From: Candidatus Omnitrophota bacterium
GTDB taxonomy: Bacteria > Omnitrophota > Omnitrophia > Omnitrophales > Aquincolibacteriaceae
Assembly: GCA_022709525.1 (NCBI GenBank)
Contig: JAKLIQ010000001.1
Location: 3,797 to 67,796 of the forward strand
Direction: 5' to 3'
DNA length: 64,000 nucleotides
Position 1 is the stretch's first letter, and the number at the start of each line of letters is the position of its first letter. The notes beneath the pieces were generated by a model. That model was not told the origin of the DNA, searched no databases, and saw nothing but the letters and a program-made list of their open reading frames with translations. Positions 12,027 to 61,810 of the stretch are shown piece after piece. The position numbers and the translations under genes were made by a program.

Positions 12027-12027
12027 A

Positions 12028-20532: not shown

Positions 20533-21063
20533 ATGATCAGCATTGAGATCAAAGCGCGCTGTACGGACCTCCTTCGTATTCGCAAGATCCTCAAAGCCCG
20601 CCGCGCCCGCTTCAAGGGCCTTGACCGTCAGGTTGATACTTATTTCCGCGTTCCGTCGGGCCGCTTAAAGCTCCGCGAAGGGAATATAGAGAACGCGTTG
20701 ATCTATTATGAGCGCGCCGATCGAAAAAGCAGCAAGCTTTGCAAGGCCGTTCTTTTTAAATGTCCTGACCCGGCCTCCTTAAAGAGGATCCTTTCGGCCG
20801 CGGCGAGGGTTCTGGCGGTGGTCGATAAGAAGCGCGAGATCTATTTTATTAAAAACGCAAAGTTTCATATCGACCGGGTCAAAAAAATCGGAAATTTTGT
20901 CGAGATCGAAGTCTTCGGCCTTACACGAGACCTCGGGAAGCTAAAGGAGCAATGCGAATTTTACAGAAGATTATTCGGGATCAGATCACGAGACCTTGCG
21001 GCGGATTCCTACAGCGATCAACTCGTCAGACTACAGACAAGAGACCGCAGCCTAAAAAGATAA
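20533..21063 (+). CDS. CYTH-domain protein (class IV adenylyl cyclase / CyaB-like)
   Basis: EIKARC…QVDTYFRVPSGRLKLREG…LIYYERAD…H.DRV..IGNFVEIEV matches the CYTH pattern. Confidence 0.65.
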   Translation: MISIEIKARCTDLLRIRKILKARRARFKGLDRQVDTYFRVPSGRLKLREGNIENALIYYERADRKSSKLCKAVLFKCPDPASLKRILSAAARVLAVVDKKREIYFIKNAKFHIDRVKKIGNFVEIEVFGLTRDLGKLKEQCEFYRRLFGIRSRDLAADSYSDQLVRLQTRDRSLKR

Positions 21064-21104
21064 GGAGTTTTTGCTGTAGTCTGTCGTCTGTGGTCTGAAG
21101 TCTG
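21064..21104. repeat. CAGACNA heptamer-repeat element (reverse orientation) plus a hairpin; bidirectional terminator between convergent genes
   Basis: The reverse complement reads CAGACTTCAGACCACAGACGACAGACTACAGCAAAAACTCC, closely matching the element inside gatB at about 51300. Confidence 0.6.
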
Positions 21105-29045: not shown

Positions 29046-29120
29046 CGGGACTCGTTTCTAGGGACTCGAAAAACAAGACATAAAGTGAGTCCCTAGTCCC
29101 GAGAGACAAGTCCCAATCTT
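29046..29120. repeat. REP-like GGGACTCG inverted-repeat element, copy 2
   Basis: CGGGACTCGTTTCTAGGGACTCG…GAGTCCCTAGTCCCGAGAGACAAGTCCC after the yjbQ stop. Confidence 0.7.
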
Positions 29121-29130
29121 TTAAGGTTTT

Positions 29131-31179
29131 ATGGCGCACACCTACCGTAACAGGCCCAAGAAATACCGTAAAAAAGTTCATACGCCTCTGCCTCCCAGGA
29201 TCGAGAAGAAAGAAGAGCGCCGGATCTGGGTCGGCGATGAAGCGGTCATCGAGAAGCATTTTTTGAATCTGACGCGCCTTTTGCGCGACGAAGAGCGGGA
29301 AGAGCAGAACCGTTTTAAAGAGGATTTCCTGGACCGGAAACCCGACGAACGGGAAAAAAAGGGAAAAGCGCTCTACCGCCTTGAACTTCAGGAGATCCAT
29401 TACAATCCTTCCGGGCAAAAACTTTTAACTTTCTCATTCCAAAACGGCAGGCCGCTGCCCCGCTATTCATTAATAGCCGGCGACGTTGTGTCGCTTTCGG
29501 GTTTCCAGACGCCGCCCGGGGAATGTCCCGTCGGCACTGTTTATGAGAAGGACCGTTTCCGCATCACGGTCGCTTTTGGCGGCAGGATCCCCGGATGGGT
29601 CGAACAGGAAAAAAGTTTTCAGCTGGGTATCGCCGAGAACCGCACGACTTACCAGCGTATGTACGAAGCGCTTCAGTTGACGCGCGCGGCGGACCATTCG
29701 CGTCTCGCGCTTCTCAGGGATATCAGCCTTGGCCTTAAAAAACCGCGCCTGGGCGATCCTGTCCCCGCCAAGGAACTCAGCGATCTTGATCCCGCGCTGA
29801 ACAGCGACCAGAAAAAAGCGGTCACGATGGCGCTTGAAATTCAAGATATCGTCCTCATCCACGGGCCTCCGGGAACGGGAAAAACGCGCGTTTTGACCGA
29901 GATCATCCGCCAGGCGGTCAAAAGAAATGAAACCGTCCTCGTCTCTGCTCCGAGCAATGCCGCGTGCGATCACATGGTGGAATGTCTCGCTGAAAAAAAG
30001 ATACCCGTCACGCGCCTGGGACATCCGGCGCGCGTCACCGAACGGATCCGCGAGCACACCTTAAGCTACAAACTTGCCGCGCACCCTTATGCCAAGATGA
30101 TCGATTCCCATGAAGCGCAGCTCGAGCAGTTTGCCCGGCAAAAGGAAAGAAGGCAGGAGCGCCGCGTCATGTCCTGGGAAGAGCGCAACGCCATGCGTGA
30201 AGAGGTCCACCGGTTGCGCGAAGATATCCGGGATCTCAAGGCTCAGATCTTCAAACAGGTTTGGAACGCCTCCGATGTGGTCGTTGCCACGCATACTGTT
30301 TGTGGCGATCCGCTGATCCAGGCCAAATCCTTCGATTGGGTGATCCTGGATGAGGCGACACAGGGGATCGAGCCGGCGACCTGGATCCCGATCCGTCATG
30401 GCGGTAAAGTTGTCTTGGCGGGAGACCACTGTCAGCTTCCGCCGACCGTATTACGTCCACGCCCCGGCGGGCATGACCTGAGTTTTACGCTTTTTGAGCG
30501 GCTGCATGAGATCCTGGGCCCGGAATTCAAGGTCCGGCTGGAGAAACAATATAGAATGCACGAGCATATTATGGATTTTTCATCGCGCGAGTTTTACGAA
30601 GGCGCGCTCGCGGCCGATCCCTCCGTTGCAGGGCACACGCTTCTGGATTTTAAGGCCGTCAAAAGAGAAGGGCTCGACGACGCGCCGGTGATCTTTCTTG
30701 ATACCGCCGGACTCGGCTATGAAGAAGAAGTCGAAGAAGGGACTGAAAGCCGCTATAATCCTCAGGAAGCAAAACTTGTGGTCGCCGAGCTTAACCGATT
30801 GGTCAAAGCGGGGATAACGCCCGAAGATATCGCGATCATCAGCCCCTACAGCGCCCAAGTGAAGCTTTTGACAAGCATGATCCTGGGGGACAAAGGGGAG
30901 CCGGCGGTTTTGGCCGCGCTTGAGATCGATAGCGTGGACGCATTTCAAGGCAGGGAAAAAGAGGCGGTGATCGTTTCGCTCGTGCGTTCTAACCGGGAAG
31001 GCCAGCTTGGTTTTTTGACCGATACGCGGCGCATGAATGTCGCGATGACACGGGCCAAACGTAAGCTCATCATGGTGGGCGACAGCGCGACACTTTCAAA
31101 CGACAAATTTTACGAAGATCTGCTGCGTTATATCGAATCAATAAACGGTTACCGCAGCGCGTGGGAAAATAAAAGCTAG
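29131..31179 (+). CDS. superfamily-1 Upf1/DNA2-like helicase (AAA_11/AAA_12)
   Basis: Walker A LIHGPPGTGKT; DEATQ box ILDEATQ; C-terminal motifs …VDAFQGREKEAVIVSLVRSN…. Confidence 0.75.
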   Translation: MAHTYRNRPKKYRKKVHTPLPPRIEKKEERRIWVGDEAVIEKHFLNLTRLLRDEEREEQNRFKEDFLDRKPDEREKKGKALYRLELQEIHYNPSGQKLLTFSFQNGRPLPRYSLIAGDVVSLSGFQTPPGECPVGTVYEKDRFRITVAFGGRIPGWVEQEKSFQLGIAENRTTYQRMYEALQLTRAADHSRLALLRDISLGLKKPRLGDPVPAKELSDLDPALNSDQKKAVTMALEIQDIVLIHGPPGTGKTRVLTEIIRQAVKRNETVLVSAPSNAACDHMVECLAEKKIPVTRLGHPARVTERIREHTLSYKLAAHPYAKMIDSHEAQLEQFARQKERRQERRVMSWEERNAMREEVHRLREDIRDLKAQIFKQVWNASDVVVATHTVCGDPLIQAKSFDWVILDEATQGIEPATWIPIRHGGKVVLAGDHCQLPPTVLRPRPGGHDLSFTLFERLHEILGPEFKVRLEKQYRMHEHIMDFSSREFYEGALAADPSVAGHTLLDFKAVKREGLDDAPVIFLDTAGLGYEEEVEEGTESRYNPQEAKLVVAELNRLVKAGITPEDIAIISPYSAQVKLLTSMILGDKGEPAVLAALEIDSVDAFQGREKEAVIVSLVRSNREGQLGFLTDTRRMNVAMTRAKRKLIMVGDSATLSNDKFYEDLLRYIESINGYRSAWENKS

Positions 31180-31180
31180 A

Positions 31181-31250
31181 AGTCAGAAGCCAGAGGACGG
31201 CAAACGAAGTTTTTATTCTGTTTTCTGATCTCTGTCCTCTGTTTTCTGTT
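31181..31250. terminator. hairpin / terminator-like element built from inverted CAGAnnA-type repeats
   Basis: GTCAGAAGCCAGAGGACGG…T-rich…CTGATCTCTGTCCTCTGTTTTCTG after the helicase stop. Confidence 0.5.
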
Positions 31251-31272
31251 TAAATCGCAAAGGAGGTTTCAG

Positions 31273-39945: not shown

Positions 39946-40027
39946 AAAAAGATTATTGGTCTGGCAACCTAAAAGAAAAGCCGGGGACAGGCATCCCGCC
40001 TTTGTGGCGGTGGGATGTCTGTCCCTG

Positions 40028-42309: not shown

Positions 42310-43740
42310 ATGCTTTCTCCGAGGAGGAAAAGGGTTAGACTGATGACCATGATGATAAAGAAGATGGCAGCTCTTTTTTTAGTTTTTTGCCTCTTGCCGG
42401 GGCCGGCGGCTTTCGCGGAAGGACCTTCCGTGAAAGCCGGCGTTCCGGTGATGACTTTCCTTGATTGTTACAGGAAAGTGCTCGCGCATTATCCCGGGCT
42501 CCGGAAGCGCTATGAGCAGTTGGAGCAGGCCAAAGCCCAGCGCAATCTTGCGATCGCAGACCTTTTCCCCAAAGTCCGCGGCGTTTTCGGGATGGAAACT
42601 TCCGATGATCCCGTTTTTGTTTTCGGAAGCCTCCTCCGGCAAAAGTCCTTCACGGAACAGAATTTCGAGCTCAATTCGCTCAACACCCCTCGCCACCGGA
42701 CAAATTATCATTTCGGGATCGAAGGCGATATGCTGCTTTTTGATTCGTTCAATACGATCTCGAAGATCCGTTCCGCGCGCCGGCTTGTGAAGTCCGCGGA
42801 CCTTCAGGCGGATTTCACGGAAATGGAAGCCGGGATCCTGACGCTTGAAAGCTATCTCGGCATCCTGCTCGCGAGGGAGCTTTACAACATCGCGGTCGAG
42901 GTGAAGAACGCCTCCGATAAGGACCTCCAGCAAGCCAAGGACCTGAATGAAAAGGGTATGATCTTGGGCGCCGATTATTACGCCGCCAAGGTGACCGCGG
43001 CGGGCATTGAACGGGAAGTGAACCGCCTCCAGGGCCTTCTTAAAAGTTCCCGGATGCTCATGAATATCCTGATGGGGGAGGATCCGGAACTTGTTTGGGA
43101 TGCCGTCGGAAGTTTTCCGGACACGGTTCAGGAAAAGGGAGCGCTTCAAGAGTGGCTCGCGCAGGCCTATCAAAAACGATCGGACCTCGCCGCTATCGGC
43201 CAAATGCTCGACGCGCAGCGCATCGAATCGCTCCGCCAGAAGACTTCTTTCCTTCCAAAATTCTACGGCTTCGGCAGTTTGGACGAGAACAGCCACGACT
43301 GGCATACCGGCGGGCAGAGCTTTTCGCTCGGCGTCAAAGGGACCATGGATTTTTTTGACCCCAGTTATCCCGGCCGCGTCAAAGGGGCTAACGCGCAATA
43401 TAGGGAACTCAAGGCCGAACGCGACGCCCTGCGCGACGAGATCGTGAAGGGGCTCATTCAGGAGATGACCCGCTATGAGACCGTGGCCGCCGATACGCCT
43501 GTGATGAAGTCGGCTTACGCGGACGCGAAACAGGCCTCGGAACTGACGGCCAAACTATATCAGGAAGGGCGGAAATCGATCGCCGATCTTCTGGAGATGC
43601 GTCGCGGTTATTTTGAAACGGCAGCGGGGTTTCAAAGCCTTCTCCTGGCGCTTGAACTCGAGTACGCGAAACTTCTTTTCCTTTCCGGCCAGTTGAACGA
43701 AGACGGCCTTCATCAGGTTAACCAAAGGCTTCAAGCATAA
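42310..43740 (+). CDS. TolC-like outer-membrane efflux protein (OEP family)
   Basis: Signal peptide, then two repeats of coiled-coil/beta-barrel OEP architecture; 476 aa. Confidence 0.7.
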   Translation: MLSPRRKRVRLMTMMIKKMAALFLVFCLLPGPAAFAEGPSVKAGVPVMTFLDCYRKVLAHYPGLRKRYEQLEQAKAQRNLAIADLFPKVRGVFGMETSDDPVFVFGSLLRQKSFTEQNFELNSLNTPRHRTNYHFGIEGDMLLFDSFNTISKIRSARRLVKSADLQADFTEMEAGILTLESYLGILLARELYNIAVEVKNASDKDLQQAKDLNEKGMILGADYYAAKVTAAGIEREVNRLQGLLKSSRMLMNILMGEDPELVWDAVGSFPDTVQEKGALQEWLAQAYQKRSDLAAIGQMLDAQRIESLRQKTSFLPKFYGFGSLDENSHDWHTGGQSFSLGVKGTMDFFDPSYPGRVKGANAQYRELKAERDALRDEIVKGLIQEMTRYETVAADTPVMKSAYADAKQASELTAKLYQEGRKSIADLLEMRRGYFETAAGFQSLLLALELEYAKLLFLSGQLNEDGLHQVNQRLQA

Positions 43741-43755: not shown

Positions 43756-46700
43756 ATGACTTCGCATCACTCCGATATCATTAGCGGGATCGTCAGTTAT
43801 TTCGCGAAATCGAAGATCACGCCGCTCGTCATCGCCGTCTCGCTCATTATCGGCGTTTTCGCGGTCATCAATCTGCCGCGCGAAGAAGAACCGCAGATCT
43901 CGGTGCCGATGTTCGATATTTTTGTCTCCTACCCGGGCGCCGATTCCAAGGAGGTCGAACAGCGGATCGTAACTTTGGGCGAGCGTAAACTTTGGGAGAT
44001 CCCCGGCGTCGAATATATTTATTCGACGATCGAACCCGAAGGCGCGCTGATCATTGTCCGTTTCAAGGTCGGGGAAGACGTCGAAAAAAGCCTGATCAAG
44101 CTTTACACGAAGGTCTATTCCAATCTCGATTTTCTTCCCAAAGACGCGAGCCAGCCGCTGATCAAGATCCGTTCGATCGACGATGTTCCGATCCTCACGC
44201 TGACCTTTTATGGTAAGGATAAGAACGCCGTCGCATTGCGCAAAACGGTGGCCAACATCCAGAATATCGTGAACGCCATTCCCGATGTCTCGGATACAAG
44301 CATTACGGGAGGCCGCAAACGCCAGTTCCAGGTCTTTTTTGACGAGGAAAAACTCAAGGCCCGGCTCCTCAACCCGCTTGAAGTCGCCGAAATTATCCGT
44401 TCGGCCAATATCAAGCAGAACGCCGGCCATCTTGAAAGCGCGCCGGAGCTCGAATCGGTCGAGGCGAATTCCTTTTTTAAGACCAAGACCGATCTTGAAA
44501 ATCTTGTGGTGGGCGTGAGCGCGGGTTCGGTCGTCACGCTCAAAGACATCGCTAAAGTGATCGACGGGCCGGATGAGGAAGAGCGGATGACCGAGATCTT
44601 TTTCGGGCCGGCCTCCAAGACAAAAGACAAGGGCCCGTTCGAAGCCGTGACGCTTTCGATCTCAAAACGCAAAGGCGCGAACGCGGCGCATCTTTCGGAA
44701 GTGATCCTGCACACCATCCGGGAACTTCCCGAAGCGACCCTGCCGAAACATATCGAAATGACCGTGACGCGCGATTACGGCGAAACGGCGAAAGAGAAAT
44801 CCGACGAACTTCTTTTTCACATGGCGATCGCCGTATTCGGCGTAAGCGTCCTGATCGCGTGGGCCCTCGGGCTTCGTGAGTCCGGCGTTGTGGGGATCGC
44901 GATCCCGATGACCCTGGCGCTGACCCTCGCGACCTTTTATTTTTTAGGGTTCACGCTCAACCGCATCACGCTTTTCGCGCTGATCTTTTCGATCGGGATC
45001 CTGGTCGACGACCCGATCGTGGATGTAGAGAACATTGTTCGCCACCTGCGGCTCCCCGGCAACAAAGGAAAATCCATCCTTGATATCACGATCGAGGCCG
45101 TGAACGAGGTCCGCAGCCCCCTGATCCTCGCCACGCTGACCGTGATCGCGGCGATCCTGCCGATGGCTTTTGTGCGCGGGCTTATGGGCCCTTACATGCG
45201 GCCCATCCCGATCGGCGCGAGCGCGGCCATGATGTTCTCGATGTTCGTGGCGTTCGTCGCGACCCCGTGGGCGGCCTATCAGATCCTGGGACGGGCGTTC
45301 GCCCAGGGGAAACTCAAGGCGCATCATGAAGGCGAGAAGGAAGATTTTCTGACGCGTCTTTACCGTTCCTACATGAATCCGCTGATCTACAATAAAAAGG
45401 TCCGCAAAGCGTTCCTGATCGGCCTGGGGGCCCTGCTCGGGCTTTCGGTCCTGCTCGTGCCGTTGAAACTCGTGCGCGTCAAAATGCTTCCTTTCGATAA
45501 TAAAAATGAATTCCAGGTCATTTTGAACATGCCCGACGGCACGCCGGTCGAAAAAACCAAAAAAGCGATCACCGAGATCGCCGGTTACCTCGCCACGGTA
45601 CCTGAAGTCAAAGATATCGAACTCTATGCCGGTTCACCCGCGCCGTATAACTTCAACGGCCTTGTTCGCCATTATTTTCTTCGCACCAAGCCCTACCAGG
45701 CGGACCTTCAGGTGAATTTGACAGGAAAACATCACCGTAAACGCCAAAGTCACGATATCGCCAAAGCCGTGCGCCCGAAGATCCATGAGATCGTCAAAAA
45801 ATACGGCGGCCATGTCCAGGTCGCGGAAGTGCCGCCCGGGCCGCCGGTGCTTTCCACGCTCGTGCTTGAAATTTACGGCCCTTCGCGCGACGGGCAGGCG
45901 GAGCTTAATAAAGCCATTGAAGGGCTTCTTGCTTCAAGCGAAGGCGTCACTGATATCGACACCTACCTGCAGGCGCCGGAAAAACTCGCGCGGCTTCACA
46001 TCAATACCGAAAAGGCGTCTTTGAACGGTATTCCGGCTTCGCAGATCTCGGCCGCGATCACGGCCGCTTTGGATGGAAAAGTCGTGGACCTCGCGCACTT
46101 ATCGGAAGAATACGAACCGGTCGAGATCCTTTTAAGGCTTCCTAAAGAAAAACGCGCCGCACTTGATAATGTGCTTAATATGACGCTTTTATCGCGCTAC
46201 GGGAACCCGATCCCCGTCAGGGAGCTCGTCAATGTTGAAAAGGACACGAAGGACCCGGCGATCTATCACAAAAACCTGATGCGGGTTTCCTACGTGATCG
46301 CGGATGTGGCGGGACGCTATGAAAGCCCCGTTTACGCGATCCTGAAACTTAAAAAAGAGATCGCGAAGATGCCGGCGCCCCCCAACCATGAAGGGCAGAA
46401 AACGCTCGATCAGATCTTCACGCGCCAGCCGGCCACCACAGACCGCTGGACCGTCAAATGGGACGGGGAGTGGCAGATCACGTATGAAGTGTTCCGCGAC
46501 CTCGGGATCGCGTTCGCGTTCGTCCTGCTTCTTATTTATGCGCTCGTGGTCGGATGGTTCCAGTCGTTCAAAACGCCCTGGATCATCATGCTCCCGATCC
46601 CGCTTACCTTGATCGGCATCCTGCCGGCGCATTGGCTCGGCGGCGTGTTCTTCACGGCGACTTCCATGATCGGCATGATCGCGGGCGCGGGGATCGTCGT

Positions 46701-46974
46701 GCGGAATTCCATTATCCTTGTGGATTTTATCAAGCTCCGGCGCGCGGAAGGAATGCCGCTTGAAGAGGCCGTCGTCGACGCGGGCGCGAAGCGTTTCCGG
46801 CCGATGCTTTTGACAGCCGCCGCGGTAGTGGTCGGCGCTTCGGTGATCCTCTTTGACCCGATCTTTCAGGGCCTTGCCGTGGCGCTCATGGCGGGAGAGA
46901 TCGCTTCGACCATTCTTTCGCGAACGGCCGTTCCGGTGTTCTATTATATGATGGCTAAAAAAACGAGGGACTAG
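43756..46974 (+). CDS. RND-family efflux transporter permease (AcrB/CzcA-like)
   Basis: 1072 aa, 12 TM, with two large periplasmic loops. Conserved …FSIGILVDDPIV… and …GIVVRNSIILVDF…. Confidence 0.85.
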   Translation: MTSHHSDIISGIVSYFAKSKITPLVIAVSLIIGVFAVINLPREEEPQISVPMFDIFVSYPGADSKEVEQRIVTLGERKLWEIPGVEYIYSTIEPEGALIIVRFKVGEDVEKSLIKLYTKVYSNLDFLPKDASQPLIKIRSIDDVPILTLTFYGKDKNAVALRKTVANIQNIVNAIPDVSDTSITGGRKRQFQVFFDEEKLKARLLNPLEVAEIIRSANIKQNAGHLESAPELESVEANSFFKTKTDLENLVVGVSAGSVVTLKDIAKVIDGPDEEERMTEIFFGPASKTKDKGPFEAVTLSISKRKGANAAHLSEVILHTIRELPEATLPKHIEMTVTRDYGETAKEKSDELLFHMAIAVFGVSVLIAWALGLRESGVVGIAIPMTLALTLATFYFLGFTLNRITLFALIFSIGILVDDPIVDVENIVRHLRLPGNKGKSILDITIEAVNEVRSPLILATLTVIAAILPMAFVRGLMGPYMRPIPIGASAAMMFSMFVAFVATPWAAYQILGRAFAQGKLKAHHEGEKEDFLTRLYRSYMNPLIYNKKVRKAFLIGLGALLGLSVLLVPLKLVRVKMLPFDNKNEFQVILNMPDGTPVEKTKKAITEIAGYLATVPEVKDIELYAGSPAPYNFNGLVRHYFLRTKPYQADLQVNLTGKHHRKRQSHDIAKAVRPKIHEIVKKYGGHVQVAEVPPGPPVLSTLVLEIYGPSRDGQAELNKAIEGLLASSEGVTDIDTYLQAPEKLARLHINTEKASLNGIPASQISAAITAALDGKVVDLAHLSEEYEPVEILLRLPKEKRAALDNVLNMTLLSRYGNPIPVRELVNVEKDTKDPAIYHKNLMRVSYVIADVAGRYESPVYAILKLKKEIAKMPAPPNHEGQKTLDQIFTRQPATTDRWTVKWDGEWQITYEVFRDLGIAFAFVLLLIYALVVGWFQSFKTPWIIMLPIPLTLIGILPAHWLGGVFFTATSMIGMIAGAGIVVRNSIILVDFIKLRRAEGMPLEEAVVDAGAKRFRPMLLTAAAVVVGASVILFDPIFQGLAVALMAGEIASTILSRTAVPVFYYMMAKKTRD

Positions 46975-47033
46975 GGACTCGCTCCTCGTCAAGGGCTTTT
47001 ACGAGTCCCGAGGGACAAGTCCCGAGTCCCGCT
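46975..47033. repeat. REP-like GGGACTCG inverted-repeat element, copy 3
   Basis: GGGACTAGGGACTCGCTCCTCG…ACGAGTCCCGAGGGACAAGTCCCGAGTCCC immediately after the RND gene stop. Confidence 0.7.
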
Positions 47034-47051
47034 TTATCAAGGAGGCAAATC

Positions 47052-47255
47052 ATGACTATCGAAAAATATATCCGCGTCATCGCCGGCAGTTTTATTTTGA
47101 TCAGCCTCGCGCTAGCGATCTGGGTCAGCCCCTGGTGGCTCATCTGGACCGCGCTCGTCGGCGTCAATCTGATCCAATCTGCATTTACGAACTGGTGTCT
47201 TGCCGAGACTATCCTGAAAAAATTCGGCATGAAATCCTGCTGCGAACCAAAATAA
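47052..47255 (+). CDS. DUF2892 (YgaP-like) small membrane protein
   Basis: …RVIAGSFILISLALAIWVSPWWLIWTALVGVNLIQSAFTNWC… is the typical DUF2892 pattern. Confidence 0.6.
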   Translation: MTIEKYIRVIAGSFILISLALAIWVSPWWLIWTALVGVNLIQSAFTNWCLAETILKKFGMKSCCEPK

Positions 47256-47353
47256 TTCGCTGATTCAAGAGGCGGCTCCGCGCAGTGGCTCGCCCCTTTG
47301 ATTGACACTCCCTCCGCCTTCGGGCAGAATGTCTCTTCAACTAGAGGAATCCT

Positions 47354-47638
47354 ATGGAATTTGATATCAAGAAAGTCGCGGAACTCGCCCGCCTGAACCT
47401 GAAGCCCGAAGAGCAGGCCAAACTTGAAAAAGACCTCAGCGCGATCCTCGATTATGTGAAAAAACTCGAGAAACTCGACACCTCCAAGGTCGAGCCCACA
47501 AGCCATGTCCTCGATATGGAGAATGTCTTCCGCGCGGACGAGGTAAAGCCTTCGGACGCCGCCGATAAAGCCCTCAAGCACGCCCCGCAGGCGGACGGCC
47601 GTTTCTTCAAAGTTCCAAAAATTGTGCAGCGAGACTGA
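47354..47638 (+). CDS. gatC: Asp/Glu-tRNA amidotransferase subunit C
   Basis: …[12 protein letters not shown]…L..IL.YV..L…DTS.VEPT. Confidence 0.85.
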
Positions 47639-47639
47639 T

Positions 47640-49061
47640 ATGGCAGACCTCTGCTCTCTTACTTTAAAGGAAGCCATCGAAGCCGCGAAAAAAGACGGCC
47701 CGGGTCCCCTGATCGACGCGTTCGCCAAAAGGGCGCAGGCCGTTAATCCCAAACTGAACGCGTTCCTGCGTTTTGATCCCTCAAAAATTGAAAATGGAAA
47801 AGGCGCGCCGCTTTATGGCGTCCCCATTTCCATCAAGGACAATATCTGTATCGACGGCAGGGAAGTGACCTGCGCCTCAAAGATCCTTGAAAAGCACGTG
47901 CCGCCCTATAACGCGACCGTGATCGAGAAATTAAAAACGGCCGGCGCCACGCTTTTCAGCCAGTGCAATATGGACGAGTTCGCGTTCGGCTCCTCCTGCG
48001 AAACGTCCGCGTTCGGGCCGTGTAAAAATCCGTGGGACCTGATGCGCGTGCCGGGTGGCTCAAGCGGCGGCTCCGCGGCCTCGGTCGCGGCAGACATGAC
48101 GGTCGCGGCGCTCGGGTCCGACACCGGAGGTTCGATCCGCCAGCCCGCGGCGCTTTGCGGCGTGGTCGGCGTCAAACCCACTTACGGCCGCGTGTCGCGT
48201 TACGGCCTCATCGCGTTCGGCTCCAGTTTTGATCAGATCGGACCGTTCGCCAAGACCGTGGAAGACGCGGCGATCCTGATGAATATCATCTCGGGCCATG
48301 ATCCCAAGGATTCCACCTCATCGCCCGAAAAGATGCCGGACCTGACGCAGGCGCTCAAGCGCGACGTAAAGGGTCTCAAGATCGGCCTCCCGAAGGAATA
48401 TTTCATCGAGGGGATCGACCCGGAAGTCGAAAAAAGCGTGCGCGCCGCAGCGGAGATCTATAAAAAGCTCGGCGCTGAGATCAAACAGGTCTCATTGCCG
48501 CATACCGAGCACTCGGTCGCGGTCTACTATATAGTAGCCGTCGCGGAGGCGAGCTCGAACCTCGGCCGCTTTGACGGCGTCGAATACGGACTTCGCGTGC
48601 CCACTAAAGACCTGCGGGAAATGTATTTTGAGACGCGCGACCGGGGATTCGGCCGGGAAGCCAAGCGCCGCATCCTGCTCGGCACGTTCGTCCTCTCGGC
48701 CGGATATTATGAGGCTTACTATTTAAAAGGACAGAAAGTCCGCACGCTCATCCGCCAGGATTTTGAAAAGGCGTTCAAGGAAGTCGATGTGATCCTTTCG
48801 CCCACATCACCCACGCCGGCCTTTAAGATCGGTGAAAAAGCCGCGGATCCGATCGCCATGTACTTGTCCGATATTTTCACGATCCCCGCCAATTTGGCGG
48901 GCATCCCCGCGATGTCCGTTCCGTGCGGATTCACAAGCGGCGGACTTCCGATCGGCCTCCAGCTCATGGCGCGCCCCTTTGATGAAGCCACCATGCTTCG
49001 CGCGGCCTATAGTTTTGAGCAGGAAACCGGCATCTACAAAAAGAAACCGAAGTTAGACTAG
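47640..49061 (+). CDS. gatA: Asp/Glu-tRNA amidotransferase subunit A
   Basis: Amidase signature …[13 protein letters not shown]…[13 protein letters not shown]…. The start at 47640 overlaps the gatC stop. Confidence 0.9.
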
Positions 49062-49086
49062 AGACAAGAGACCTGAGACTGAAGCC

Positions 49087-49302
49087 ATGACGAATAACTT
49101 GCATCACGCCGCCAAAAAATATGTGGAAGTGATCGAGAAGATCGAAAAAACAACCGATCCTAAGGCATTGCAGGCGCTAGAAGAAAAACGGATCGATCTT
49201 CACTGGAAATTCATCGACCTGCTCAAGAAGCAGGGGATCAAGTATAAAGACAGGGACCACGCGACCCGGATCGCCATACGGATCGCACACGGTGAATTAT
49301 GA
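49087..49302 (+). CDS. hypothetical small protein (inside the gatCA|gatB insertion)
   Basis: 71 aa, helical, charged. ATGA coupling to the next ORF. Confidence 0.4.
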   Translation: MTNNLHHAAKKYVEVIEKIEKTTDPKALQALEEKRIDLHWKFIDLLKKQGIKYKDRDHATRIAIRIAHGEL

Positions 49303-49532
49303 CAGTTCTTGAGATCGCGAAGATTTATACGGACTTGGTCAAGGCGGAGCGGGAAATTCCCGAGGAGGAACATCAGGCCAAAGAAAAGATCAATGCCCTC
49401 CGGACCAAATATCACGAGATGCTGATGGCGAAAATGCGCGAAGAAAAAGTCGATTTTTCAGACCGTTTTGATGCCGCCGCCAAGGCTTTTGATCTTGTTC
49501 GCGAAGAAGAAGCAAAATATGGCGAGAAATAA
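49299..49532 (+). CDS. hypothetical small protein (inside the gatCA|gatB insertion)
   Basis: 77 aa, coiled-coil-like; translationally coupled to the upstream ORF. Confidence 0.4.
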   Translation: MTVLEIAKIYTDLVKAEREIPEEEHQAKEKINALRTKYHEMLMAKMREEKVDFSDRFDAAAKAFDLVREEEAKYGEK

Positions 49533-49594
49533 GCAAACCATTTCAACTAGCGCAGTTGAAATCGGTTGCGTTTTTAAAATGGGAAATAGAGGTT

Positions 49595-50008
49595 ATGGCC
49601 GAACGTAAAAATTTTCATCTGCTTTTTTGGGTCCTGCTGCCGGTCCTTATTCTGATCGCGGGGGTCCCGTTCTACACGGCGCATGCGTGGGATCTTAAGA
49701 ATATCGCGGCGGCTACGGGCCTCAGCGCGTTCTGCGCTTTGCTGGCACTTACGGTCTATGACGCTAAAAAATTCTCGTGGGCCGCGCGCGGCATGGCTTT
49801 TTTGGTGTTTCTACTCTTCGCGTTTTATCTGGGCAGCCAGGTCCTCCGGGGGATCGGGGCCCACACATGGTATCCGGAAGGGACAAGATCAACAGTCTCC
49901 GTTCCGAACGCCATCAAAGGATTCCTCGTTTTTGGTTTGCCATGTTTGATATACACCATTTTTGGAAACACTCTATTCAGCAAATGGGGTCATAAAAATA
50001 AAGTTTGA
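49595..50008 (+). CDS. hypothetical membrane protein (inside the insertion)
   Basis: Start MAERKNF behind GAGG; four predicted TM helices. Confidence 0.45.
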   Translation: MAERKNFHLLFWVLLPVLILIAGVPFYTAHAWDLKNIAAATGLSAFCALLALTVYDAKKFSWAARGMAFLVFLLFAFYLGSQVLRGIGAHTWYPEGTRSTVSVPNAIKGFLVFGLPCLIYTIFGNTLFSKWGHKNKV

Positions 50009-50080
50009 AAGAAACCGGCATCTACAAAAAGAAACCGAAATTATAAAAACAAACATAGTTTTTTAAAGTAATGTAAAAAT

Positions 50081-50929
50081 ATGATTGTATATAAATATGT
50101 TACTTCAGCTGGCGATGACATAATCAGAAATTTGAGAATTATGGTAAATAGCTCTCGAAGTTTTAATGATCCGTTCGAATTAATACCTGCCATAGAAAAT
50201 ATAACATCTGAACAGGTAAACCAGGCCGTGTTAAAAAACGATCATTATCTTCGGCATATTTATAAAATTGGGATAGCAAGTGGCAGAATTGAAAAATCTT
50301 ACGATCAGTTTAAACAAGAAAATCAAAATCCCGAAAGAAGCAAAATAGTTTCAAAAAATATGGCTCAAAATACCACTAAAAACATGCGAGCGACTGCTAA
50401 AAAAAGCCGAGAAGACGTCGACAGAGTTGCTTTGATGGCGTGTTTTTGCGGAGAAACCATTGATAATCATCATGAAATATTAATGTGGGCACATTACGCT
50501 GAAGGTTATAAGGGATTACGTATTGCCTTTGATTCAAATATGCTTAATAGTCCTTCCACGCCTTTAATAGAAATGAAATATAGCAAAGATAGATTGCGTC
50601 TCAATCCAATAGATTATTGGAAGAATGGCATCCAATCACTCAACAAATTTTACGGGGAAATGCTGACTGCTAAAAGCAGCGCATGGGCCTATGAGAATGA
50701 ATATAGATGGCTTGTGCCTGTCTCTTTGTGTAAAAAAGATGGTCGGTATTACTATGTTCCAATTGATTCGAAAGCGATTATTGGTATCGATTGTGGCGTT
50801 CAATGTTCAGAAGAACGTATTTCTTATATCAAAAAATTAGTTCAGTCCAATCTTGGGGAATCGACTTTTATTAGAAAAACTGTTATTGATGATTATGAAT
50901 ACAAACTTAAATACATCGATAGCATCTAA
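50081..50929 (+). CDS. DUF2971 family protein (low-GC, likely horizontally acquired)
   Basis: MIVYKYVTSAGDDIIRNLRI..NSSRSFNDPFE… and …MWAHYAEGYKGLRIAF…YENEYRW match the DUF2971 pattern. About 35% GC, against about 60% in the flanks. Confidence 0.6.
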   Translation: MIVYKYVTSAGDDIIRNLRIMVNSSRSFNDPFELIPAIENITSEQVNQAVLKNDHYLRHIYKIGIASGRIEKSYDQFKQENQNPERSKIVSKNMAQNTTKNMRATAKKSREDVDRVALMACFCGETIDNHHEILMWAHYAEGYKGLRIAFDSNMLNSPSTPLIEMKYSKDRLRLNPIDYWKNGIQSLNKFYGEMLTAKSSAWAYENEYRWLVPVSLCKKDGRYYYVPIDSKAIIGIDCGVQCSEERISYIKKLVQSNLGESTFIRKTVIDDYEYKLKYIDSI

Positions 50930-50972
50930 AATCTGCATTGAATAAACAGTAAAAGGAATAACAGGAAGAAAA

Positions 50973-52493
50973 ATGAACTACGAACCAGTCATTGGACTAG
51001 AAGTCCACGTACAGCTGAAGACGAAGAGCAAGATGTTCTGCGCTTGTTCCACGGAATTCGGTGTGGAAGGCAATAAGAACACATGTCCGGTGTGTCTCGG
51101 CTGGCCGGGATCGCTGCCGGTGGTGAATGAAACAGCGCTCAAGCTCGCGATCCGCGCGGGGCTAGCTCTCAATTGCAAAGTCGCAGAGCGGCTCAAGTTC
51201 GACCGGAAAAATTATTTCTATCCTGATCTTCCGAAAGCGTATCAGATCTCGCAATACGATATGCCGGTAAATGGGAAGGGGTTTGTGGATGTGGAAACCC
51301 AGACTACAGACCACAGACTACAGACCACAGCAAAAAACGAAAAAGAGCAAAGCGAAAAACAAAACTCCGAACTCCTTGCTCCTCGCTCTACGCTAAAAAG
51401 AATCGGGATCACGCGTGCGCACCTGGAAGAAGACGCCGGAAAACTTCTGCACGAGGGCATCGCGGACGGAAGCCTTGTCGATTACAACCGCGGCGGCATC
51501 CCGCTTCTTGAGATCGTCTCCGAGCCGGACCTCCGCAGCCCGCAGGAAGCGTACGATTACCTCACGGCGCTCAAGGCCATCCTTCAATATATAGAAGTGA
51601 GCGACTGCGATATGGAAAAGGGGAGTTTGCGCTGCGACGCGAACGTGTCCGTCCGGCCCGTAAGCCAGGAGAAATTCGGGACCAAGGTCGAGATCAAGAA
51701 CCTGAACTCCTTCAAGATGGTGCAGAAAGCGATCCAGTACGAGATCGAGCGGCAGACGGGGATCCTTGAAGATAAAGAAGCCGTTATCCAGGAAACGCGG
51801 CTTTGGGAGGACAAAAAAGGCGTGACGGTCTCGATGCGTTCCAAGGAAGAGGCGCACGACTACCGCTATTTTCCGGAGCCGGACCTTGTGCCGTTCACGT
51901 TGTCGCGCAAGACCGTGGAGGAGATCAAAAAGACACTGCCGGAGCTGCCCCTTGAGAGGGCGAAACGGTTCGTGAAAACCTTCGGCATTTCCGAATATGA
52001 CGCACAGGTCCTTTGTCAGGAGAAAAAACTCGCCGAATATTTTGAGGCATGCGTCAAAGAGGGCGCCGCCGCGAAATCCGCAAGCAACTGGATCCAGTCC
52101 GAGATCTTGGCCATTCTTAATGAAAAAAATTTATCCGTCGAAAATTTTCCGATCACAGCGGCAAGCACCGCAGGAACGATCCGCCTTATTGAAAAGGGAG
52201 CCATCAGCGGCAAGATCGCCAAAGAAGTTTACCGTGAAATGTTTGAGACCGGCAAAGACGCCGAAACGATCGTCAAAGAAAAAGGCCTGACGCAGGTCTC
52301 CGACACCGGTTTAATTGAAAAAGCCGTGGAAAAAGCCATCGCCGCGAACCCCGCCGCCGCCCAGGAATTCAAGGCCGGAAAACAAAAGGCCCTCGGCGCC
52401 CTGGTCGGTTTTGTGATGAAAGAGACCGCCGGCAAAGCCAATCCGAAGCTTGTTAATGAAATTCTCATTAACAAGCTCGGGACTCGTAGCTAG
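50973..52493 (+). CDS. gatB: Asp/Glu-tRNA amidotransferase subunit B (with an in-frame repeat-derived insertion)
   Basis: MNYEPVIGLEVHVQLKT.SKMFC…ISQYD…KRIGITRAHLEEDAGKL…. About 28 extra residues (TQTTDHRLQTTAKNEKEQSEKQNSELLAPRSTL) lie where B. subtilis GatB has VGGKT. Confidence 0.9.
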   Translation: MNYEPVIGLEVHVQLKTKSKMFCACSTEFGVEGNKNTCPVCLGWPGSLPVVNETALKLAIRAGLALNCKVAERLKFDRKNYFYPDLPKAYQISQYDMPVNGKGFVDVETQTTDHRLQTTAKNEKEQSEKQNSELLAPRSTLKRIGITRAHLEEDAGKLLHEGIADGSLVDYNRGGIPLLEIVSEPDLRSPQEAYDYLTALKAILQYIEVSDCDMEKGSLRCDANVSVRPVSQEKFGTKVEIKNLNSFKMVQKAIQYEIERQTGILEDKEAVIQETRLWEDKKGVTVSMRSKEEAHDYRYFPEPDLVPFTLSRKTVEEIKKTLPELPLERAKRFVKTFGISEYDAQVLCQEKKLAEYFEACVKEGAAAKSASNWIQSEILAILNEKNLSVENFPITAASTAGTIRLIEKGAISGKIAKEVYREMFETGKDAETIVKEKGLTQVSDTGLIEKAVEKAIAANPAAAQEFKAGKQKALGALVGFVMKETAGKANPKLVNEILINKLGTRS

Positions 52494-52600
52494 GGACTCG
52501 CCCCTCGTGAAGCAGATCAAGAAACATCGCTCGGACCTCGGGACTCGGGACTTACTTTTTAAAAAACGAGGAACTAGTCCCGAACAACGAGTCCCGCGAG
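52480..52600. repeat. REP-like GGGACTCG elements, tandem copy 4 (two units) overlapping the gatB stop codon
   Basis: CTCGGGACTCGTAGCTAGGGACTCGCCCCTCG…CTCGGGACTCGGGACTTAC…ACTAGTCCCGAACAACGAGTCCCGCGAGG. The gatB TAG lies inside the first unit. Confidence 0.7.
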
Positions 52601-52608
52601 GATCAGCT

Positions 52609-53673
52609 ATGCTGACCCTCGGTATCGAAACCTCCTGCGACGAGACTTCGTGCGCTGTTTTAAAAGGCAAGGACACGATCCTCTCGAACATTGTTTCCTC
52701 CAGTCTCTTCCGGCATAAAAAATTCGGCGGCGTCGTGCCCGAGATCGCGTCGCGGCACTGCATGGAGCAAATCGAATGCGTTTTTCATGAAGCGGTTCGA
52801 CAAGCTCACTGCAAGCCCTCCGATTTGGATTTGATCGCTGTGACGCAGGGGCCGGGGCTTATCGGCTCGCTCCTTGTCGGCGTCGCGTTCGCCAAATCGC
52901 TCGCCTACCAGCTCGGGATCCCGCTTGTGGGCGTCAATCACATGGAAGCTCATCTTGTCGCGAATTTTTTTGGAACCCCCGAGCCCAAACGCTTTATCGG
53001 GCTTCTTGTTTCGGGCGGGCACACGATGCTCACATTTTCCGAAAAAGGGAAGATCCATATCCTTGGCGAGACGATCGATGACGCGGTGGGCGAAGCGTAT
53101 GACAAGGTCGCGAAGATTATGGGGCTAAGCTACCCCGGCGGGCCCATCATTGATAAACTTGCGAGAGAAGGAAACCCGCGCGCTGTTCATTTCACGCGGC
53201 CCAAGCAGGAAGCGCGTTTCGGATTCAGCTTCAGCGGCGTGAAGACGGCCGTCCTTTATCTTGTTCAGGGTTTTAAAAAAACCCCCTCACCTTTATCCTC
53301 TCCCCCTTGCAAAAGGGGGAGAGGGGAGGGTGAGGGGGCGATAAAGAAGAGGTTGGGTGTTTCAACCATCAAAGATCTCGCGGCGAGTTTCCAACACGCG
53401 GTGATCGGATGGCTCGTGGAAAAGGCCATCGACGCGGCGGAATTTAAAAAAGTCAAAGATATCGTCGTAGGCGGCGGCGTGAGTGCCAATTCTTATTTGC
53501 GCGAGAAACTTACGCGGGATGCGGCGGCCAAGGGAATCAAGGTCTGGTTCCCGCCGTTCGAATTTTCGACGGATAACGCAGCCATGATCGCGCGCCGGGG
53601 GTTTGAGCTTTACCAACGGGGAAAACGGTCGAAACTTAATATGACCGGTGATCCGGGATTGACGATTTCATAA
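52609..53673 (+). CDS. tsaD: tRNA N6-adenosine threonylcarbamoyltransferase (with an in-frame palindromic insertion)
   Basis: MLTLGIETSCDETS.AV…VTQGPGLIGSLLVG…GGV.AN..LR. The extra loop TPSPLSSPPCKRGRGEGEGAIKKRLGVS is encoded by a GC-rich palindrome at about 53281-53340. Confidence 0.9.
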   Translation: MLTLGIETSCDETSCAVLKGKDTILSNIVSSSLFRHKKFGGVVPEIASRHCMEQIECVFHEAVRQAHCKPSDLDLIAVTQGPGLIGSLLVGVAFAKSLAYQLGIPLVGVNHMEAHLVANFFGTPEPKRFIGLLVSGGHTMLTFSEKGKIHILGETIDDAVGEAYDKVAKIMGLSYPGGPIIDKLAREGNPRAVHFTRPKQEARFGFSFSGVKTAVLYLVQGFKKTPSPLSSPPCKRGRGEGEGAIKKRLGVSTIKDLAASFQHAVIGWLVEKAIDAAEFKKVKDIVVGGGVSANSYLREKLTRDAAAKGIKVWFPPFEFSTDNAAMIARRGFELYQRGKRSKLNMTGDPGLTIS

Positions 53674-53753
53674 CCCCTTACCACACCCGGTGTGTACACG
53701 AGCGTACACACCGGGTGTGAACAGGGTGTACGGATGCTAAAAGGGAGGTTTTT

Positions 53754-55545: not shown

Positions 55546-55644
55546 ATGCCTTGGGCTCGTAAACAGCGCAAGAAGAAGATGAACAAGCACAAGCGGAAGA
55601 AGAAGCTCCGCAAGCATCGTCACAAGAAAAAAGACTGGTCCTAG
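55546..55644 (+). CDS. bS22-like small basic ribosomal protein (32 aa; not in the ORF track)
   Basis: MPWARKQRKKKMNKHKRKKKLRKHRHKKKDWS behind AAAGGAG. Resembles mycobacterial bS22 (…KKRRKRMSKKKHRKLLRKTR…). Confidence 0.45.
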   Translation: MPWARKQRKKKMNKHKRKKKLRKHRHKKKDWS

Positions 55645-55649
55645 TTTAG

Positions 55650-55740
55650 TTCGTCATCTGGTAAACTGAAGACCGGAAACTGAGTCCACGGGCCCGAAAA
55701 GCTTTTGGTTTCAGTTTTCGGTCTTTTGTCTTTAGCCGGG
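55650..55740 (+). terminator. hairpin terminator after the small basic ORF
   Basis: AAACTGAAGACCGGAAACTGAG…CAGTTTTCGGTCTTTTGTC inverted repeat. Confidence 0.5.
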
Positions 55741-61072: not shown

Positions 61073-61810
61073 ATGCAGACTTTTGAATTGCAAGCCAAAT
61101 CCAGAACCCCGGATGGGACCCGCAAGGCGCGCGCCGTCCGCCGCAATGAGATGCTCCCGGCCGTTGTGTACGGCCACGGTATGAAACCTCTTGCGATCGA
61201 AGTGCCGGAACGAGCGTTCCTCAAGGCCATCCACACCAAGGCCGGCGAAAACGTGTTGATCACGCTCCAGGTCGAAGGTGTTAAATTGAAAGAGTCGACC
61301 TGCCGTATCAAGGATATTCAACAGAACCCGGTCACCGACAAGATCGATCACATCGATTTCATGGTCATTTCGCTTACCGAAAAGATCACGGTCAAAGTGC
61401 CCGTAGTCCTTCTGCATGTCGAAGACGCTCCGGGCGTCAAAGAAGGCGGATCGATCGACCTGGTGCACCGTGAGATCGATGTCGAATGTCTTCCGACGCA
61501 GATCCCGGAAAAAGTTGAGATCGACGTAAAGCCGATGAAGATCAATGACGCCGTTCACGCGAAGGAATTGTCCCTTCCCGAGGGGGTCAAATGCCTCCTT
61601 CCGCTGGACGAGGTGGTTTTTGCGATCCACCCGCCGCGCGAAGAAGAGGTGAAGCCCGCCGAAGAAGGGGCGGCCGCCGAACCGGAAGTCATCGAAAAAG
61701 GAAAGAAGGAAAAAGAAGGCGAAGAGGGCGCTCCTGCCGCCGCGAAACCCGCCTCAGCTCCGGCCGCGGGAAAACCCGCCGCTCCCGCCGCAGGCAAAGA
61801 AGGAAAGTAG
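61073..61810 (+). CDS. rplY: 50S ribosomal protein L25 / general stress protein Ctc, with an Ala/Pro/Lys-rich C-terminal tail
   Basis: …RKARAVRRNEMLPAVVYGHG… is the L25 N-terminal domain plus a Ctc-type extension. Confidence 0.8.
   Translation: MQTFELQAKSRTPDGTRKARAVRRNEMLPAVVYGHGMKPLAIEVPERAFLKAIHTKAGENVLITLQVEGVKLKESTCRIKDIQQNPVTDKIDHIDFMVISLTEKITVKVPVVLLHVEDAPGVKEGGSIDLVHREIDVECLPTQIPEKVEIDVKPMKINDAVHAKELSLPEGVKCLLPLDEVVFAIHPPREEEVKPAEEGAAAEPEVIEKGKKEKEGEEGAPAAAKPASAPAAGKPAAPAAGKEGK

Follow-up and report, generated by a model that had tools for sequence, protein, structure and literature searches.

In a 64,000-nucleotide stretch of a Candidatus Omnitrophota bacterium contig (hereafter the window), the gene gatB carries an in-frame tract of CAGACYA heptamers, which is probably the left arm and the A-rich loop of a small palindrome built from heptamer arrays, with the right arm swapped for the distal part of a second element; we regard the insert as a tolerated passenger and its site as a slot that can be overwritten. 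Hairpins of several heptamer families were shown to fill the short intergenic spacers of the window and of related Omnitrophota, and to stand in frame in a few permissive loops (GatB and TsaD). In GatB the in-frame peptide of about 32 residues lies at the tip of a beta-hairpin and is predicted to be disordered.

The host gene (50973-52493, + strand) is an open reading frame (ORF) of 506 aa with the Pfam domains GatB_N (PF02934) and GatB_Yqey (PF02637), and its product matches the structure chains 3h0l_B and 3al0_B (E 1e-154). The exact protein is present on nine contigs, and the window DNA matches the 550-kb metagenomic contig JGI 3300010429 Ga0116241_10000025. The repeat that an earlier note on this DNA had placed in frame in gatB at 51297-51395 reads as it was described there. 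The entire insert spans 51300-51395 (+ strand; 96 nt, 32 codons), starts directly after GAA ACC (E-T), stops ahead of AAA AGA ATC GGG (K-R-I-G) and stands in for part of an 11-codon native loop, of which KTADGKMIERK is an example. From E-T to IGITRAH the segment measures 34 aa in the window; the native state, shared by 71 of the 120 homologues, has 11 aa. The insert thus adds 23 residues net and not the approximately 28 estimated before.

The four heptamers CAGACTA CAGACCA CAGACTA CAGACCA (51300-51327, + strand), delimited by repeat scans and by positional homology with relatives, would represent the left arm of a CAGAC-family hairpin. They are followed by the A-rich loop of the element, CAGCAAAAAACGAAAAAG (51328-51345, + strand), which is common to three other copies, with the counterparts CAGCAAAAA in a copy at 21 kb of the window, CAGCAAAAAAGGAAAAAG in gatB of the relative L185 and CAGCAAAAAATAAAAAAG in an fpg-borne copy in L115 (L numbers denote the loci compared). 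After GAAAAAG, in the place expected for the absent right arm, lies what alignment to gatB of L184 indicates to be what is left of another heptamer hairpin family (AGAGCAA AGCGAAA AACAAAA CTCCGAA CTCCTTG CTCCTCG CTCTACG; 51344-51394, + strand). The first 46 nt of the insert, comprising the four units and the loop, are homologous by position to the left half of the hairpin of the L185 type, and within the array and the beginning of the loop 30 of 37 bases are identical to L185. The 3' part aligns over 51 bases with the complete AGAGCAA-family hairpin of L184, and 37 of them, including all of the first 15, are identical. Because the two parts match these two different elements, the gatB insert appears from the alignments to be a chimera of two heptamer hairpins from which the long hairpin has been lost; the whole insert folds as RNA with only -11.5 kcal/mol (z -0.59), which is no better than shuffles.

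The periodicity of the tract was recovered by several counts. Tandem Repeats Finder (TRF) reported 51300-51330 as 4.4 copies of a period of 7 and as 2.2 copies of a period of 14 (100% match), TA and CA units alternating in what is an imperfect heptamer tract; with at least three tandem 7-nt units, it belongs to the heptanucleotide-repeat class. Allowing at most one mismatch, CAGACNNCAGAC occurs eight times in the window versus 1.36 expected, a number reached by none of 100 shuffles, and all eight occurrences lie either within gatB or within 21027-21104. When arrays of four 7-nt units were required to have four or more invariant columns, four were found in the window, none in shuffles and none at periods of 8, 10 or 11. 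The earlier note did not recognise that the unit belongs to one arm of a hairpin and is no free tandem repeat, nor did it notice the chimera, the clade-wide hotspot or the in-frame hairpin of the neighbouring tsaD.

The two sister copies proposed in the earlier note are both real. The one placed at 21064-21104 is larger than was stated and turns out to be the right arm of an inverted repeat, a complete CAGAC-family hairpin of 78 nt between convergent genes (21027-21104), with its left arm at 21027-21051, an A/T-rich loop at 21052-21072 and its right arm at 21073-21104. As RNA it folds on either strand, with -38.1 kcal/mol (z -4.4) for the + and -33.1 kcal/mol (z -4.0) for the - strand. The gatB tract agrees with the reverse complement of its right arm at 34 of 37 bases, the non-repeat tail CAGCAAAAA included, and is thus closer to this paralogous copy than to its positional homologue in L185. 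The left arm encodes the C-terminal residues ..VRLQTRDRSLKR* (..VRLQTRDRS..) of the upstream ORF (20533-21063, a CYTH gene according to the earlier note), and judging from the reading frame the element also lengthens a protein C-terminus here. The second copy, at 49055-49084 (+ strand), is a solo array of four AGACNNG units (AGACTAG AGACAAG AGACCTG AGACTGA AG) whose best match is the 21-kb left arm (20 of 23 bases, at 21028-21050). It overlaps the gatA stop codon, fills the spacer and ends 2 bases short of the next ATG; it has no complementary arm, and it is identical in the relative L088.

A total of 120 Omnitrophota GatB homologues were compared, with 61 close and 59 more distant ones. Inserts of 15-40 aa occupy exactly the loop used in the window in 28 of the close and seven of the more distant homologues, and at least seven sequence types were distinguished among them, at least four of which were confirmed as heptamer or palindromic repeats; the GatB loop is, on this comparison, an apparent hotspot of inserts across the clade. 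The insert peptides are unrelated between groups, and heptamer or palindromic DNA underlies them wherever the DNA was read (nine gatB loci). For the homologues beyond these nine, the repeat nature was judged from the peptides only, and a short CAGAC allele (KTTDDRLQTTAKK) and one AGAGCAA-like allele were read as protein only. In nearly all insert-bearing GatBs, whatever the family, the loop ends before IGITRAH with K-R, while E-R/K-K/T stands there in the insert-free ones.

Full, one-armed and chimeric states are all represented at this loop. The gatB of L089 carries a perfect, one-armed (GGGACTC)x4 array, flanked on both sides by GAAACAAA, which may be native sequence. In L088 the loop holds the palindrome CCCTCACCCCATCCCTCTCCC-AGG-GGGAGAGGGCAGGTGAGGG, a CCCTCAC/GTGAGGG hairpin, and in L184 it holds the complete AGAGCAA-family hairpin with -33.8 kcal/mol. 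The gatB genes of L185, L186, L090, L187 and L188 run from GAAACN through four CRGRCCA-like units and a C(A/G)NNAAAAA-type loop to four complementary units and AAA..ATCGG; these five full hairpins, in GatBs 73-80% identical to that of the window, sit at the same codon as the window insert and fold with -26 to -40 kcal/mol. Together with L184 and L088 they make up the full gatB hairpins found. The complementary arm can be coding despite the TAG within TAGTCTG, as one of the three frames is open, and L185 encodes the full hairpin.

When the five full hairpins were aligned, the register i + j = 96 paired in 71% of cells versus 27-38% with partners slid by 1-3 columns, and both sides had changed in 10 of the 32 pairs, a value attained in 16 of 500 shuffles; pairing is likewise possible when the register is shifted by 7 nt. 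These five sequences give moderate support to the view that arm complementarity has been kept through divergence. The hairpin might then be functional in the gatB mRNA, as a stem-loop for mRNA stability or processing or for translation pausing in the gatCAB-tsaD cluster, with its recurrence in the loop reflecting selection, an explanation that we consider unlikely though the strongest of the alternatives. It would account for four plus four complementary units in five lineages despite about 20% protein divergence and for the retention of the insert in 28 of the 61 close homologues, and examples of stem-loops adjusting operon stoichiometry have been described (PMC8219983, PMC10311766). However, the window copy no longer folds, the L089 array has one arm, 33 of the 61 close homologues have no insert, and the same site has been taken by inserts of unrelated sequence and length (15-40 aa). 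Nor did the sense RNA prove stabler than the antisense: it was the more stable one in 12 of 22 intergenic and three of eight in-frame hairpins, an absence of asymmetry that therefore reveals nothing specific to selection on RNA.

The distribution of the families points to dispersal between loci. The CAGAC family occupies both gatB and the 21-kb spacer in the window, and in L187 the CCACG family is present in the gatB loop and also in the gatB-tsaD spacer. In the spacers after the ACR_tran gene and between gatB and tsaD, a hairpin is always present across orthologues, with a unit that is genome-specific (GGGACTC in the window, GGATGNC in L090, GGGGAAC in L089 and GAGGCCC in L009) and that recurs at several sites per genome. 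The gatB-tsaD spacers of L090, L089, L186, L187 and L009 hold hairpins of non-GGGACTC heptamer families, and at the position after the ACR_tran gene (46965-47035 in the window) the relatives have a hairpin of another heptamer family. A metagenome scan for CAGACNNCAGACNNCAGCAAAA returned 93 stretches, and a large number of these are complete hairpins of the form (CAGACNN)n-CAGCAAAA-(NNGTCTG)n. Copies of the CAGAC type were in frame in genes named by NCBIfam as TsaD, GatB (in a different loop), Fpg, ValRS, LeuRS and UvrA, and unrelated metagenomic contigs also carried copies in spacers. The fpg copy of L115, CAGACTACAGACTACAGCAAAAAATAAAAAAG, agrees with the window sequence CAGACTACAGACCACAGCAAAAAACGAAAAAG at 29 of 32 bases by reading, loop included, and at 12 of 14 positions at the peptide level. 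The proposal that a small dispersed repeat occupies both intergenic and coding DNA is hence borne out by gatB, the 21-kb spacer and the 49-kb solo arm, by gatB and the spacers of the relatives, and by metagenomic housekeeping genes. The LeuRS, ValRS and PurL-like proteins that carry a CAGAC element (L173, L144, L109 and L113) contain several more low-complexity inserts with the look of translated repeats, such as ..ISNLKFPISNENSKLKIKNS.. and ..RQQTADGRQQQKDTGGVVADSTAVCHPPSAV...

These matches in unrelated genes, together with the complementary arm, are evidence against an origin by local slippage. The proposal of slippage would make the tract an ordinary long microsatellite, grown in place from native codons during replication and sharing no descent with the other copies. 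Polymerase slippage has been named as the origin of heptanucleotide repeats (Mrazek et al. 2007, cited in PMC4679880 and PMC4692102), the native T-A-D-G-K codons are like the first unit plus the loop, and pairing is possible in registers 7 nt apart. Yet a match of 34 of 37 bases to a copy 30 kb away takes in the non-repeat tail, the fpg copy that matches at 29 of 32 bases belongs to another organism, the complementary right arm present at the site in relatives is beyond the reach of slippage, and close relatives have unrelated heptamers in the same loop. A slippage-only origin is largely refuted by these observations, and we hold it to be improbable.

A further possibility is that the extra loop is an adaptation of GatB at the protein level, for instance one by which it contacts tRNA, GatA or some partner protein. 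In the AlphaFold model (mean pLDDT, the predicted local distance difference test score, 73.9), residues 112-137 have a pLDDT <50 and lie between the strands 103-110 and 139-153. The solved GatBs (3h0l_B and 3al0_B) have a short turn at the equivalent place, followed by a strand before the HLEEDAGK motif. The model therefore shows the insert as a disordered excursion from a beta-hairpin tip, which agrees with the loop position predicted earlier, and a position compatible with the fold of the protein is what the model indicates. In favour of an adaptation, the frame is kept in an essential enzyme, and the insert is on the strand leading to the conserved HLEEDAGK motif. Against it, disorder is predicted for the segment, which is missing from half of the close relatives, and the peptide is not conserved between lineages; where the DNA was read, the peptides are straight translations of DNA repeats, GLGTRDSGL being (GGGACTC)3 and TPSLSQGERAGEG a palindrome. 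A segment conserved as protein with no nucleotide repeat beneath it, which would have told against the proposal of a repeat element, is accordingly not what was found, since the peptides are unconserved and repeat DNA is present at nine gatB loci. We give an adaptive loop slight credence, a little below that of slippage.

The suggestion that gain or loss of 7-nt units toggles gatB, as in a contingency locus with phase variation, did not hold up and is very improbable. The unit length is not a multiple of 3, and the shifted registers can pair. On the other hand, gatB and its downstream spacer showed 0 differences in seven assemblies (these being assemblies and not reads, of samples that may all be one clone), the protein forms a single-member cluster at 90% identity, the units are imperfect, the gene is essential, and six lineages agree in a fixed unit number of four, the window having four units and each of the five relatives, with GatB identities as low as 73%, having 4 + 4. 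An artefact of assembly or chimera formation, for which the repetitive sequence is the sole argument, can practically be dismissed, as the DNA is identical in independent JGI and ENA assemblies and many other assemblies have homologous inserts.

For the favoured explanation, a hairpin half retained as a passenger in an overwritable slot, we propose that an ancestor of this Omnitrophota subclade would have gained a hairpin at the GatB loop. The site would then have acted like an intergenic hairpin slot, the resident element being overwritten, chimerised or partly deleted via exchange with other genomic copies. An open reading frame would be the sole requirement that selection imposes at the GatB site, so that the gatB element would amount to tolerated passenger DNA; the intergenic copies probably serve as intercistronic stem-loops.

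Several points weigh against this explanation. Neither target-site duplications nor terminal inverted repeats nor a transposase were found, though the window ORFs were not scanned for Y1 transposases, and because of this, mobility is deduced from the distribution only. At the gatB and tsaD junctions no clear target duplication, as a MITE would be expected to leave, was seen, there being no empty-site DNA of a close relative for comparison, which also leaves the junctions of the insert undefined. The native loop codons, given by back-translation of the loop peptide as ACC GCC GAC GGC AAA, are similar to the first unit plus the loop (ACT GCA GAC ... GCA AAA), and some in-situ growth from native sequence, or copying guided by microhomology, is possible. 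The covariation is modest and comes from five sequences, and the complementarity that was kept could mean that the hairpin has a function in the gatB mRNA, contrary to its being a passenger. A neighbour-joining tree of the 120 GatBs with the loop removed was poorly resolved and recombination was evident, so one ancient insertion followed by replacements and many independent insertions are not separable. Finally, the data cover 64 kb of the genome and pieces of about 20 kb from relatives that were picked for their GatB insert.

A wider generalization can be offered tentatively, as a possibility that we think rather doubtful. Heptamer-array hairpins may be a widespread and so far undescribed class of self-propagating elements in Omnitrophota, Acidobacteriota, Thermodesulfovibrionales and other uncultured bacteria, which overwrite each other in gene-end slots by a dedicated mechanism and colonise permissive loops of essential proteins, where in-frame and hairpin constraints would jointly drive the evolution of the stem and of the disordered peptide. 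Period-7 arrays occur at 1.9 per 10 kb in Omnitrophota loci, where almost all are intergenic with the exception of gatB, versus 0.67 per 10 kb in a control set of 76 loci from other phyla. In the latter they are concentrated in a few genomes as inverted pairs, namely Acidobacteriota (L021, L044, L045 and L060), L015 and Thermodesulfovibrionales (L011). Inverted pairs of heptamer arrays were seen to be abundant in L021, L044, L045, L060, L063, L015, L011 and L061, which include some Acidobacteriota, a Thermodesulfovibrionales metagenome-assembled genome (MAG) and unclassified MAGs, with (CGAAATT)n/(AATTTCG)n and (GGTCAGT)n/(ACTGACC)n as examples.

In the window itself, ten period-7 arrays of several families were counted, nine of them outside gene interiors, and the hairpins sit in short gaps from a stop codon to the next gene. 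Intercistronic hairpins of the GGGACTC family were located on the + strand at 1025-1101 (-36.4 kcal/mol, z -4.4), at 29047-29114 (20-nt arms, 17 matches) and at 46965-47035 (-37.8 kcal/mol, z -4.5), the last reaching from the stop codon of the ACR_tran gene to the ribosome-binding site of the next gene. The gatB-tsaD spacer (52475-52596, + strand) likewise holds GGGACTC-family arrays, one of which (52475-52510) overlaps the gatB stop codon and is followed by a hairpin at 52532-52596. An intercistronic hairpin of the NNNCAGA / TCTGNNN family occupies 31173-31251 (+ strand; -23.9 kcal/mol, z -2.8). Of the four further heptamer hairpins of the window that were folded, three reach a z of about -2.8 to -4.5, with mismatches at about one per 7 nt; arms measure 25-35 nt and whole elements 60-100 nt. 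The hairpin scan was ungapped and missed the tsaD hairpin owing to a bulge, which makes it an incomplete census. By reading, at least four T, comparable to the U tract of an intrinsic terminator, follow about half of the intergenic hairpins (for example 1025-1101, and those at 6297-6360 in L089 and 11490-11582 in L090), and the remaining ones lead directly to the ribosome-binding site of the next gene. A generic promoter/terminator scan of the window was not enriched over shuffles, and an Rfam gathering scan of the window returned tRNA only, the elements being covered by no known RNA family.

The tsaD gene contains the second in-frame element of the window, a hairpin of about 26 base pairs (53282-53338, + strand; -53 kcal/mol, z -6.2) of the CCCTCAC/GTGAGGG family, which encodes the peptide ..TPSPLSSPPCKRGRGEGEGA.. 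and is of the same family as the gatB loop of L088. It is absent from the TsaD of L088, L090 and L009. The TsaD of L009, a more distant Omnitrophota locus (gene at about 11445-12602), has a 22-aa insert, FGLRPTAPDQSGSAHGTTANNQ, in an N-terminal hairpin, which may be another in-frame repeat. The 407-aa tsaD of the ORF list (52450-53673) runs 5' through the repeat-filled spacer, and it probably begins at the ATG at 52609, for a protein of 354 aa. Similar over-extension of tsaD by gene callers was seen in L088, in L089 and apparently in L186, in all cases overlapping the end of gatB.

The gatCAB-tsaD neighbourhood is itself variable. Between gatA and gatB, the interval 49087-50929 holds four small or unknown genes (71, 77, about 137-150 and 282 aa, the last a weak DUF2971 match). 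The block is unrelated in L088, and in other relatives Fic, zf-CDGSH or RhuM-type genes stand there instead; because the gene content differs among relatives, the interval would seem to be a variable accessory slot within the gatCAB cluster. Over 46650-53600, identity between the window and L088 is a mosaic, with 97-100% in gatC and gatA, about 90% in gatB and 53-83% in part of tsaD, 49450-50970 being unrelated. This mosaic therefore indicates, as far as the alignment goes, that recent homologous recombination between lineages has shuffled alleles.

Other repeats were noted in passing. A palindrome with 20-nt arms (17 matches) at 52440-52484 covers the final gatB codons (..KLVNEILINKL..) just ahead of the GGGACTC arrays. 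Long inverted repeats with no obvious 7-nt periodicity lie at 53675-53726, 39984-40025, 42404-42442 and 55669-55725, the third of them inside a 476-aa ORF of the OEP family. TRF also reported tandem repeats with a 27-nt period at 55565-55616 and 61729-61798 (1.9 and 2.7 copies).

With at least seven insert types in one loop of an essential enzyme across closely related genomes, the GatB locus is unusually informative, and its pattern argues for copying or exchange between loci, beyond local slippage. It also offers a natural allele series for asking if the stem is of importance as RNA or as DNA. More generally, hairpin repeats that lie in frame supply the core proteins of uncultured bacteria (GatB, TsaD, aminoacyl-tRNA synthetases, UvrA and Fpg) with lineage-specific inserts of low complexity; such inserts can mislead alignment, annotation and phylogeny, and spacer repeats can cause over-extended ORF calls, of which the 407-aa tsaD ORF is an example.

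Among known systems, the STRR (short tandemly repeated repetitive) sequences and other heptanucleotide repeats of bacteria share with these elements the 7-nt units in short tandem arrays and the several families per genome. Cyanobacterial STRR units include CCCCAGT, TTGGTCA and CAACAGT. Both kinds are strongly intergenic, near start or stop codons, and sometimes form inverted arrays able to fold between cistrons. The citing papers PMC4679880 and PMC4692102 credit Mrazek (2007) with the finding that, in many bacteria, no other long simple repeats are as common as the heptanucleotide ones, a kind known since the cyanobacterial STRR work. The spacer between hupS and hupL has a hairpin made of STRR heptamers (PMC2670836), and inverted GGGAATC arrays are found in Xanthomonas (PMC4692102). 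Coding or gene-internal cases are on record as well: STRRs lie inside an essential RNA gene, that of the RNase P RNA, going by the title of Vioque 1997 cited in PMC2858038, and in Beggiatoaceae only ten sets of TAACTGA repeats were interior to ORFs (MacGregor, PMC4679880). The present elements differ in belonging to another phylum and in having the units CAGACNN, GGGACTC, AGAGCAA and NNNCAGA, which makes them the same kind of repeat but not the same families. They differ further in that the Omnitrophota arrays are nearly always paired as hairpins with an A-rich loop and lie in frame within genes for essential proteins, where one loop recurs as the site. In the incomplete set of literature consulted, no report was found of heptamer-array hairpins in frame in essential protein genes, nor of such repeats in Omnitrophota.

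The likeness to other repeat classes is more partial. Contingency loci too consist of a coding tandem repeat with a unit that is not a multiple of three, but gatB shows no length variation, has imperfect units in an essential gene and keeps the unit number between species. Repetitive extragenic palindromes (REPs), REPINs and bacterial interspersed mosaic elements (BIME), which have been proposed to act in mRNA stabilisation and in termination (PMC3733652, PMC3116915), are likewise families of imperfect palindromes in spacers just past stop codons. However, REPs measure 20-40 nt, carry a GTAG or CGTC tag, are linked to the REP-associated tyrosine transposase (RAYT) and show no 7-nt periodicity; GTAG occurs here only in the right arms of the CAGAC family and is absent from the GGGACTC, GGATG and GGGGAAC families, so the elements do not qualify as REPs by their tag.

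The Rickettsia palindromic elements (RPEs), described as in-frame palindromes by Ogata et al. 2000 and 2002 according to PMC10969869, appear closest in behaviour, being small palindromes that are intergenic or in frame in unrelated housekeeping genes, that are translated at positions compatible with the fold and that are regarded as selfish DNA. They are about 100-150 bp long, have family-specific conserved peptides and no 7-nt units, and are confined to Rickettsia, whereas the Omnitrophota elements are 60-100 nt long and periodic, and many families interchange at one site; with size and 7-nt periodicity differing, the analogy is one of behaviour only. Taken together, the GatB insert unites the repeat features of the STRR type with the behaviour of the RPEs.

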